Positions 13,548-15,556 of a stretch of DNA of 49,963 nucleotides are shown here, piece after piece (within the stretch, counting starts at the first letter, position 1; every line of letters begins with the position of its first letter). The position numbers and the translations under genes are program-made. The DNA comes from Verrucomicrobiia bacterium (GTDB taxonomy: Bacteria > Patescibacteriota > UBA1384 > CAILIB01). Below the pieces are notes generated by a model, which was not told the origin of the DNA, searched no databases, and was given only the letters and a program-made list of their open reading frames with translations. The stretch covers positions 1 through 49,963 of the forward strand of contig DATHWI010000117.1 of assembly GCA_035460805.1 (NCBI GenBank), given 5' to 3'.

Positions 13548-14564
13548 TTGGATATAAGCTATAAGCCTTTTTTGGAGCGCACACCTGATTCGCAATATCA
13601 GGATGCCCTGCGCGCAGTATTCGAGCGCGGCGTCCGCGCCAGCTCGGCGCACGAAACCGGTTCAGTGACCCTCATGGGCCAGGTGAACTTCTGCTACCAC
13701 ATGTCCAACGGTTATCCGCTTATACCGGATCGCAATATGGACCCCCCACCATCTGAAAAGATGCCCATCCCGCAGTGGCAACAGGCCAAGGCGGAGATAC
13801 TGGCGTTCATCAATGGTGCCCACACACAGGAAGAGCTAGAGAAATTTGGCTGCCTGAGCTTCTGGCGTGACACTGTCACGGGAGAAGAAGGGGAACGCAA
13901 ATGCAAAAAGCGCGGCTTGGAGGTTGGGGACCTGGGACCTGCATCATACGGTGCGGTCTTTGGGAAGTTTCCCCTGATTGAGCCAAAGCTGCTGCAGAAG
14001 ATCCGCCATACCCTCTCTCCCGATGCTTTGACGGAGTTTGACGCTGCCCTCAGGGCACTTAAGGTGGCCGATGGCTTTAACCAGGTCAAAGCGGTACTCA
14101 ACCAGATCAAGAATGAGCCCAAGCTCCGGACACACTGGATTGAGCCGTGGTATTCCCCAGGCATTTGGCGCGAGGACCAATCCGTGGTCGTGTGCCCTTG
14201 TCACGGGTGGATTCACATCCGTATCCTGGACGATGGCCAGCTCTACTACCACATGCACCAGCGCTCCGGCGACATGGTGTTGGGGGTTCCCAACAATATT
14301 GTGGAGCATGCAGGGTTGGCGTTGGCGTTTGCGCGGGCAACGGGATACCCCTTAGCCCAGTACAGCCACTCCATCTCGGACGCCCACCTCTATCTAAACC
14401 ATATGGAGGCGGTGGAAACACTGCTCTCCCGCCCACCTCGCCGGCTTCCAACCATGAAGCTGCGTGAAGGTGTGGATGACCTGTTTGCTATCCGTAGGGA
14501 GGACTTTATCCTTTCCGACTATTTCCCACACCCTGGGATCGGAGGGATACCATTAAGCGTATGA
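13548..14564 (+). CDS. thyA: Thymidylate synthase (ThyA family), divergent and extended
   Basis: CPCHGW (catalytic Cys), HQRSGDMVLGVPNNIVEH and SDAHLYLNH align by eye with E. coli PCH / QRSCDVFLGLPFNI / DTHLYSNH. TTG start with GAGGAGGA at 13537-13544. 338 aa. Confidence 0.8.
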   Translation: MDISYKPFLERTPDSQYQDALRAVFERGVRASSAHETGSVTLMGQVNFCYHMSNGYPLIPDRNMDPPPSEKMPIPQWQQAKAEILAFINGAHTQEELEKFGCLSFWRDTVTGEEGERKCKKRGLEVGDLGPASYGAVFGKFPLIEPKLLQKIRHTLSPDALTEFDAALRALKVADGFNQVKAVLNQIKNEPKLRTHWIEPWYSPGIWREDQSVVVCPCHGWIHIRILDDGQLYYHMHQRSGDMVLGVPNNIVEHAGLALAFARATGYPLAQYSHSISDAHLYLNHMEAVETLLSRPPRRLPTMKLREGVDDLFAIRREDFILSDYFPHPGIGGIPLSV

Positions 14565-15514
14565 AAGGATCTACCTTTTCCATCATGATCGCCATCGCTA
14601 AGAACGGCGTAATCGGCAAGGATAACGACCTGCCGTGGCCTAGCTTGCGGACGGACATGCGCCATTTCATGGCGACAACGAAGGGTAAGCCGGTCATGGC
14701 GGCACGGAAAACCCACGAATCAATCCTGGCTCGCAGCAAAGGCAAGCCGCTTGTTGGGCGCCACACCATGGTGCTCACACGCAACCAGGAGTACACCACC
14801 GACCCCAAATGCATTGTTTTTCAGGATCAGGCAAAGCTCTTAGAGTATGCCGACTCCCTGAACGATGAGGTGTTCGTGATTGGTGGTGCCGAGCTCTACC
14901 ATATGATGCTGCCTGTGGCCGACAAGGCCTATGTCACCATCGTGGACGCAGAGCCGGAAGGGGATGCGTTCTTTCCTCTTGAAAGCTTCTCGAGAGAGAA
15001 TGGCTGGAAAGAGGTGAGTCGCACCCACTTTGAAGCCGATGAGGAGAATACGTACCCAGGTGACATCGTCATCTATGAGCGGTTGAGCCCGTACGTGTAC
15101 ATCCCCAATGCGCGGACCTTTGACCAGCGCATGATCATGCGCCAGATAAGGGCCGACGGCGTCTGTCCATTCTGCAGGGAGAACCTGGAACGGTACCACA
15201 CCCAGCCAATCCTGGCTGAGGGAAGGTACTGGGTGATTTCACCTAGCCAGTATCCGCGGAAAGGGGCGTCCCGCTACCTCATGGCCTTCTACAAGGCTTC
15301 GCACATCATGCATCTCCACGAGCTGCCTGGTGAAGCGATGGTGGAGCTACTAGACCATGCCCAACGGCTTGGCATTGGTGCTTCTGGCGGCTTGGCAATC
15401 CGCTTCGGTGAACCAAAGGATACGGGTGGAAGTGTCCACCATCTCCACGCGCACCTCATTTTCCCAGATCCTAACCAGGACCCCGTCCGGTTTAAGATCG
15501 GTCCCAATATGTAG
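14561..15514 (+). CDS. folA: Dihydrofolate reductase fused to a C-terminal HIT (histidine triad) domain
   Basis: DHFR in residues 1-175: IAIAKNGVIGKDNDLPW, VFVIGGAELY, TIVDAEPEGDAFFP. HIT domain in residues ~180-317: CPFC...VHHLHAHLIFP (H-phi-H-phi-H-phi-phi). ATGA overlap with thyA. Confidence 0.85.
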   Translation: MKGSTFSIMIAIAKNGVIGKDNDLPWPSLRTDMRHFMATTKGKPVMAARKTHESILARSKGKPLVGRHTMVLTRNQEYTTDPKCIVFQDQAKLLEYADSLNDEVFVIGGAELYHMMLPVADKAYVTIVDAEPEGDAFFPLESFSRENGWKEVSRTHFEADEENTYPGDIVIYERLSPYVYIPNARTFDQRMIMRQIRADGVCPFCRENLERYHTQPILAEGRYWVISPSQYPRKGASRYLMAFYKASHIMHLHELPGEAMVELLDHAQRLGIGASGGLAIRFGEPKDTGGSVHHLHAHLIFPDPNQDPVRFKIGPNM

Positions 15515-15528
15515 GGACAAAAATATAA

Positions 15529-15556
15529 CCCCTCACCTTACGGTGAGGGGCTTTTA
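15529..15556. terminator. Bidirectional hairpin between convergent folA-HIT and deaminase genes
   Basis: Stem CCCCTCACC (15529-15537) pairs with GGTGAGGGG (15542-15550), loop TTAC, then CTTTTA. The deaminase stop codon (15538-15540) sits in the loop. Confidence 0.7.

Follow-up and report, generated by a model that had tools for sequence, protein, structure and literature searches.

Why should a dihydrofolate reductase (DHFR) and a histidine-triad (HIT) nucleotide enzyme be made as one polypeptide, directly downstream of a thymidylate synthase (TS) homologue? The question is raised by a gene at positions 14561..15514 (forward strand) of contig DATHWI010000117.1, from an assembly deposited as Verrucomicrobiia bacterium and placed by GTDB in the Patescibacteriota (GCA_035460805.1); the whole 49,963-nt stretch is called the window here, and the gene lies within a 100%-complete Patescibacteria genome of 1.23 Mb. 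Our analysis indicates that the product is probably a genuine bifunctional protein, derived from two fused neighbour genes of a conserved five-part thymidylate module, with a HIT half that would be catalytically competent. A first-pass annotation, made from the letters alone, had described the gene as one uninterrupted open reading frame (ORF) of 317 codons, and frame scanning and translation returned exactly that frame. The motif strings that it had quoted were all located in the translation, with IAIAKNGVIGKDNDLPW (residues 10-26), VFVIGGAELY (residues 104-113) and TIVDAEPEGDAFFP (residues 126-139) in the DHFR half and CPFC (residues 202-205) and VHHLHAHLIFP (residues 292-302) in the HIT half. 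The overlap with thyA was likewise as described: the upstream ThyA-family ORF stops with the TGA at 14562-14564, and the ATGA is therefore common to both genes.

The DHFR-HIT gene is a genuine single ORF and no assembly artefact, because its junction is kept at the protein level in relatives of 30-51% identity and in the genomes of other species. We give almost no credence to the alternative that an assembly frameshift or a lost stop codon has joined a separate folA and HIT gene. The two are separate, overlapping genes in some relatives (locus L001, with a 17-nt overlap, and genomes G170, G073, G048 and G386), so that a single base error could mimic a fusion, but eight other full-length proteins share the architecture together with an in-frame conserved linker, and the linker is in frame with that of the homologue P0002, which is 51% identical over its full length (ERLSPYVYIPNARTFDQR vs DRQSAYVYLPNARTREQE). 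DHFR and HIT also share one ORF in 7 of the 16 genomes that carry the module described below, that is, in 7 of the 401 sampled genomes of the phylum, and six of these are other species. In a FastTree of 210 HIT domains of this type, the fusion protein falls inside a supported clade (92) of 12 fused representatives. The fused state requires at least 13 changes on this tree, against about 67 with shuffled labels, which points to repeated fusion or fission; this count is indicative only, because the tree is short (about 140 columns) and the fused and free-standing sets were unevenly sampled.

The first-pass annotation knew of no DHFR-HIT fusion. The architecture is recurrent and not unique: a profile search of 1.84 billion cluster representatives ranked full-length fusions at the top, and by our own domain count of the retrieved proteins there are about 87 fused representatives (clusters at 50% identity), with DHFR N-terminal to HIT. 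It is uncharacterized as far as we found in the literature, a search of which yielded no description of a DHFR-HIT fusion or of the five-part module; one account (PMC12455944) mentions for Patescibacteria only thyA transfer. Free-standing HIT domains of the same type form at least 590 clusters of about 140-175 aa from Parcubacteria-type lineages, labelled in their sources as 'HIT domain-containing', 'Ap4A hydrolase' or 'ATP adenylyltransferase'. A separate observation concerns P0020 (L006 6001-8605, GCA_023246095.1), a divergent DHFR-HIT fusion with D27H and F31S in its DHFR half and a triad that reads HTHVE, directly followed by a normal 163-aa DHFR and thyA; from its sequence it looks like a decaying or repurposed fusion copy.

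That the N-terminal half is a DHFR was confirmed by family, residues and fold alike. Residues 6-174 match Pfam DHFR_1 (PF00186) with an E value of 1.5e-42 and 145.4 bits (cut-off 25) over profile positions 2-159 of 159. The equivalents of E. coli D27, W22, F31, R44, T46, I50, R57, G95-G96, Y100 and T113 are all kept, the reference being an E. coli sequence with its length of 159 aa confirmed. A full-length AlphaFold2 model reached a pLDDT of 83.5 and a pTM of 0.78, and its DHFR half found 8f09_A as best match in Foldseek (E 6.8e-18, template-modelling (TM) score normalized to the target 0.89), and solved DHFRs in general matched at TM 0.85-0.9. No second DHFR was found anywhere in the 1.23-Mb genome, the fused one being the sole copy. 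With its residues intact and its chemistry established, the DHFR half is functional and carries out the NADPH-dependent recycling to tetrahydrofolate of the dihydrofolate released by the neighbouring ThyA.

Motif, profile and fold all place the C-terminal half in the HIT superfamily, as the first-pass annotation had proposed, but the support is weaker than was implied, because the domain on its own stays below threshold in Pfam: DcpS_C (PF11969) gave an E value of 0.0016 and 19.4 bits (cut-off 24), HIT (PF01230) gave 0.013 and 16.5 bits (cut-off 21.5), and no NCBIfam match was found for this half. At a relaxed cut-off of E<=1, Pfam HIT was found in 8 of nine homologous C-terminal domains (best E 1.5e-6) and DcpS_C in all nine (best E 4.9e-7), and a profile built from the nine matched solved GalT, HIT, Fhit, Ap4A-phosphorylase, Hint and aprataxin chains with E values of 3e-7 to 1e-3. 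Since Foldseek with the full-length model returned DHFR matches only, the HIT domain was modelled on its own. The resulting AlphaFold model (residues 176-317), for which 16 free-standing homologues were supplied, had a pLDDT of 93.2 and matched Hint1, Hint2, a Zn-bound bacterial HIT protein, Ap4A phosphorylase and Fhit with a Foldseek probability of 1.0 and target TM scores of 0.55-0.68. The H-phi-H-phi-H-phi-phi motif of the superfamily reads H294-L-H296-A-H298-L-I in the fusion protein.

Conservation across the 210 family members is concentrated at R185, C202, P203, F204, C205, W224, P232, H248, R281, G283, G289, V292, H294 and H296, which are near-invariant. C202 and C205 occur in 209 members, H248 in all 210, and H294 and H296 in 209; the third triad residue, at 298, is His in 160 members, Gln in 30 and Asn in 15. 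The zinc ligands of GalT are Cys52, Cys55, His115 and His164; by analogy with these and with Zn-bound HIT proteins of bacteria (for example 3o0m, one of the Foldseek matches), C202, C205, H248 and H294 probably form a structural zinc site. Arg281 is invariant where Hint and Fhit have Asn or Gln, and motif alignment places it near the leaving-group site. The residue pattern of the Hint branch is absent according to our own motif alignment, which rests on Hint1 numbering: in place of the ribose-binding Asp the family has Asn and the fusion protein Ser, Arg281 occupies the Asn position, and no C-terminal Trp motif was found. On sequence grounds the family cannot be assigned to any one HIT branch, and we call it here the module-type HIT. 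Its identification as a housekeeping Hint was rejected, because the same genome has two canonical HIT genes elsewhere (C104:17484-17768 and C29:21428-21715); one of these sits within a 366-aa open frame and may be another HIT fusion.

The genomic setting indicates what the HIT domain belongs to. In a sample of 401 GTDB species genomes of the host phylum, from which module loci were excised and their ORFs scored with home-made hidden Markov models, strong matches to the module-type HIT profile (E <= 3e-28) occurred in 16 genomes, or about 4%. In all 16, the HIT gene lies within about 4 kb of a gene for a divergent ThyA (the module-type ThyA) and one for a long dCMP-deaminase-family protein; a RfaE-II-like nucleotidyltransferase (NT) was seen in every module whose contig reaches that side, and DHFR is present in 15, G350 having no adjacent DHFR. 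The module thus has five parts, of which DHFR is usual rather than constant. The profile of DeamN, the N-terminal domain of the long deaminase, found 15 of the 401 genomes, all within the same 16; at the sixteenth locus the contig stops within the deaminase gene. Loci L001, L007 and L008 have the same arrangement with a free-standing HIT gene, directly after folA in L001 and directly after thyA in L007 and L008 (by an ATGA overlap in L008), followed by a convergent pair, one gene encoding a dCMP-deaminase-family protein of about 280 aa and the other a CTP_transf_like protein, and the layout of the fused P0004 locus is that of the locus in the window. G386 has a second, weaker HIT-like ORF (68 bits; L048 5516-5920, G386:C13:11515-11919) directly after the first, which suggests a tandem duplication. 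Recent horizontal transfer of the module was considered and rejected, as the G+C content is flat at 0.54-0.57 across it, although the two other genomes of the host's family have neither DHFR nor the module-type HIT.

The HIT gene is no general companion of ThyA. In a subsample of 141 genomes, Pfam ThyA scores distinguished 49 canonical homologues (290-420 bits), 12 divergent ones (150-228 bits) and 13 partial matches in ORFs of about 500 aa; all 7 HIT-bearing genomes of the subsample fall in the divergent class, and the module-type HIT was found in none of the 49 canonical-ThyA genomes. At nine canonical loci that we examined, only thyA-folA was present, and no HIT, NT or DeamN was seen. Thus, the HIT family is tied to the module-type ThyA clade and to the deaminase/NT pair. 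The proposal that it serves as a nucleotide-directed accessory of a dUMP-to-dTMP gene set, with proofreading, salvage or regulation as candidate roles, is strongly backed in its general form by this linkage, but its proposed coupling to the folate cycle is not: in several genomes the HIT gene follows thyA directly and DHFR is located elsewhere, so that the HIT protein is bound to the whole module and the ThyA clade, and not to DHFR or folate as such.

A DHFR-less variant leads in the same direction. In genomes G051, G076 and G104 (loci L049 3936-7931, L050 and L063, respectively), an NT gene and a HIT gene, which overlap by 8 nt in G051, adjoin genes for a 311-aa deaminase and a protein of about 500 aa, and the HIT domain scores above the Pfam threshold (43 bits); in G142 (L056) the layout is kept and HIT was not detected. 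The protein of about 500 aa consists of an MtrA-like domain, a ThyA-like core and PterinBD-DUF4346, also occurs in nine other genomes without the trio nearby, and may, judging from its domains, be a thymidylate-synthase-type enzyme that uses another pterin. Because the NT-HIT-deaminase trio recurs with two ThyA-type enzymes, its job would lie around the supply of uracil nucleotides from cytosine nucleotides for a C5-methylating enzyme, and not around folate.

The ThyA of the window is the only ThyA homologue in the host genome, in which a search found no ThyX, and its C-terminal half aligns to solved TS structures (E 5.5e-32). Module-linked ThyA proteins were compared across the window copy (13548-14564, forward strand) and loci L001, L004, L007, L008, L022-L030, L040, L042-L048, L051 and L052. 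Twenty-one of them keep C146, E58, Q165, R166, S167, D169, N177, H207 and Y209 (E. coli numbering), and in the window copy the catalytic Cys is retained, as are the counterparts of R166, S167, D169, N177, H207 and Y209. These residues, which include the catalytic Cys and the uracil-specifying Asn, argue that the module-type ThyA methylates uracil nucleotides. About 35 aa are inserted in the window copy. In the TS family, Asp at the N177 position with a non-His residue at 147 goes with dCMP-directed enzymes of the dCMP hydroxymethylase or methylase type; ThyA homologues with these two features occur in L024 (G020), L027 (G147), L028 (G090) and L029 (G026), and no HIT, NT or DeamN was found near them. 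Other genes found in the host genome encode thymidine kinase, thymidylate kinase (tmk) and dUTPase. The tmk gene is present in the host genome (G000) and in 4 of 5 module genomes and adjoins the ThyA gene in G048 and G073, which argues that the output of the pathway is dTMP.

For the long deaminase, no Pfam, NCBIfam or PDB match to DeamN was found; the motifs Y-x-P-V-x-H-x-G-Y, D-I-R-A-L and F-L-R-W-D are kept in this domain across the module. NT scored 81 bits with TIGR02199 (rfaE_dom_II), below the cut-off of 181, and its PDB matches were ECT, HldC-like and TagD proteins.

How might these parts work together? In our preferred reading, with the predicted zinc ion holding the fold, H296 would act as nucleophile on the alpha-phosphate of a derivative of a pyrimidine (deoxy)nucleotide and become covalently nucleotidylated, by analogy with other HIT enzymes. 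The reaction would yield dCMP, dUMP or dTMP, a 5'-monophosphate that serves the module as substrate or is its product. The substrate would most likely be a dNTP or dNDP, analogous to that of phage T4 gp56, or a nucleotide conjugate made by NT. Fusion would fix a 1:1 ratio of two proteins that in relatives are co-translated from overlapping genes, and through the dimerization of HIT proteins it would also hold two DHFR domains together, comparable to the part played by TS in protozoan DHFR-TS. Two other roles were rejected: the domain is no substitute dUTPase, given the dUTPase in the host genome and another beside the module in L007, and phosphorolysis to dTDP, bypassing thymidylate kinase, does not agree with the tmk distribution given above.

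An alternative, which we consider unlikely, is that NT couples a cytosine deoxynucleotide with a carrier (dCTP + X-P to dCDP-X, or ATP + dCMP to a dinucleoside diphosphate), that the conjugate is the substrate of the deaminase and possibly of ThyA, and that HIT then frees dUMP or dTMP, such that free dUTP never accumulates. It would give a role to all three unexplained, strictly co-inherited parts, it would suit the translational coupling of the NT and HIT genes in the DHFR-less variant, and the invariant Arg281 in place of the Asn or Gln of Hint and Fhit, near the leaving-group site in our alignment, fits it as well. Further support comes from ThyA, in which two of the four canonical phosphate-binding arginines are missing, as would suit a bulkier 5' substituent. 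Both R21 and R127 are replaced by other residues in the window copy; across the module-linked proteins, R21 is non-Arg in 19 of 20, R127 is non-Arg in 15 of 21 and F176 is replaced in 15 of 21, against all three kept in 9 of 9 canonical Patescibacteria ThyAs, although these counts depend on a poorly aligning N-terminal half and on the E. coli reference, and the change at R21 could be compensated by an Arg that lies four residues further upstream. Moreover, R21 and R127 are the phosphate arginines of TS most tolerant of substitution in mutagenesis work. A kinship of DeamN with nucleotidyltransferases, based on the look-alike of 'PVxHxGY' and HxGH, was rejected as not significant (hhalign probability 1.7%) and so lends nothing to this alternative; the carrier itself is hypothetical, and we know of no carrier-linked route to thymidylate.

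Several points count against the catalytic HIT enzyme that we prefer. Co-inheritance of the module speaks for a shared pathway or shared transfer and not for one particular reaction, the HIT half falls below the Pfam gathering scores, and its substrate is a prediction only. The dUTPase of the genome would make a simple dUTP-to-dUMP role redundant. In addition, the fusion protein and its closest relative, P0002, differ from the family consensus at T227S, N229S, Y233R and H239Y, and because these four consensus residues are lost, the activity or specificity of the fusion protein could differ from that of the family. The same four shell changes in the lineage of the fusion protein could be taken to mean that its HIT half is a non-catalytic dimerization scaffold or nucleotide-sensing regulatory domain for DHFR and ThyA, all the more as obligate dimerization of HIT proteins is established for Hint and Fhit and as the degenerate DHFR half of P0020, with a second DHFR next door, illustrates that fusion halves can decay. 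We hold this to be very unlikely, since H294, H296, R281, G283 and the Cys/His set are kept in 208-210 of 210 members, including the fusion protein, which is unexpected for a scaffold, and since the domain is as often free-standing, at about 150 aa. The bifunctional enzyme remains our preferred reading. Coordinates of all features are collected in Table 1; the hairpin listed last, found by a consensus scan, looks like a bidirectional terminator that separates the convergent fusion-gene and deaminase-gene operons.

Table 1. Features of the DHFR-HIT locus (positions in the window)
Feature	Positions	Strand	Remarks
DHFR-HIT fusion gene, 317 aa	14561..15514	+	Single open frame; full-length homologues 30-51% identical
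DHFR domain, residues 6-174	14576..15082	+	Pfam DHFR_1 145 bits
Module-type HIT domain, residues 177-314	15089..15502	+	N-terminal helix, CPFC motif, HIT alpha/beta core; from profile, model and Foldseek
CPFC motif (C202, C205)	15164..15175	+	Predicted Zn site together with H248 and H294
Histidine triad H294-L-H296-A-H298	15440..15454	+	H296 is the predicted nucleophile
Module-type ThyA, divergent thymidylate-synthase homologue, 338 aa	13548..14564	+	Pfam Thymidylat_synt E 9.6e-44; TIGR03284 125 bits (cut-off 108)
Long dCMP-deaminase-family protein, 285 aa	15538..16395	-	DeamN (about residues 1-135) and zinc deaminase domain; Pfam dCMP_cyt_deam_1 at residues 140-256
NT, RfaE-II/TagD-like nucleotidyltransferase, 221 aa	16395..17060	-	Pfam CTP_transf_like; translationally coupled to deaminase gene
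G+C-rich hairpin with T-runs on both strands	15527..15552		Perfect 9-11 bp; consensus scan only

Thymidylate synthesis by dCMP deaminase, ThyA or ThyX, DHFR and SHMT is regarded as fully mapped and is a classic drug target. A subset of Patescibacteria (16 of 401 species genomes) has a distinct module, in which a divergent ThyA is always accompanied by a HIT enzyme, an NT and an extra deaminase domain with no assigned roles; the module may hold an unstudied step in the synthesis of thymine, a DNA base. The DHFR-HIT fusion provides Rosetta-stone evidence that places the HIT enzyme in the thymidylate pathway, where its reaction would be either a new activity in the HIT superfamily or a new step of pyrimidine-deoxynucleotide supply or release in scavenging organisms. 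If the carrier model were true, it would be a previously unknown route to dTMP without a free dUTP or dUMP pool. The module proteins are small and soluble-looking. New here are the measured frequency of about 4%, the exclusive association with the module-type ThyA clade and DeamN, the altered phosphate-pocket positions of this ThyA and the DHFR-less variant.

Among known systems, the clustered phage T4 genes offer a functional analogy. In T4, frd (DHFR), td (TS) and cd (dCMP deaminase) are clustered with gp56, a dCTPase/dUTPase that converts dNTP substrates to dNMP, and the module similarly combines DHFR, TS and a dCMP deaminase with a putative dNMP-supplying enzyme; however, gp56 is no HIT protein, and T4 has no nucleotidyltransferase partner. 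The Fhit, Ap4A phosphorylase (Rv2613c, 3ANO) and GalT branch is related at the level of profile matches (E 3e-7 to 1e-5), and GalT shares both the HxHxQ variant, found in about 14% of module-type HIT members, and a zinc site that the Cys-Cys-His-His set resembles. In contrast to the duplicated GalT, the module-type HIT is a single domain of about 140 aa, and it lacks the N-terminal domain of Ap4A phosphorylase.

The best profile and fold matches are the Zn-binding Hint-type HIT proteins (Entamoeba 3OJ7/3OMF, M. smegmatis 3O0M, human Hint1/Hint2), which have in common with the module-type HIT a CxxC near the N-terminus, an 'xxxPxxH' strand and the HxHxHxx motif. The relationship is distant, at TM scores of 0.6-0.68 and 16-25% identity, and the module-type HIT differs from them in an extra N-terminal helix (NARxxDQRxxMxxI), in an invariant Arg-Phe-Gly where Hint and Fhit have Asn/Gln-x-Gly, in a variable third His (H, Q or N) and in its fixed genomic partners ThyA, long deaminase and NT, with canonical HIT genes coexisting in the genome. 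The DHFR-TS of protozoa and plants (for example in Plasmodium, Leishmania and Toxoplasma) likewise joins an N-terminal DHFR to a dimer-forming thymidylate-cycle enzyme, and there too a fusion of neighbour genes fixes stoichiometry. Our protein is not itself a DHFR-TS, for DHFR and TS lie on separate ORFs: its partner is a HIT-fold nucleotide enzyme, TS is the separate, overlapping upstream gene, and the host is bacterial. Nor does the evidence here, which consists of genes and models, attribute substrate channelling to it. Together, these comparisons identify the protozoan and plant DHFR-TS as the closest architecture and the Zn-binding Hint-type HIT proteins as the closest domain.

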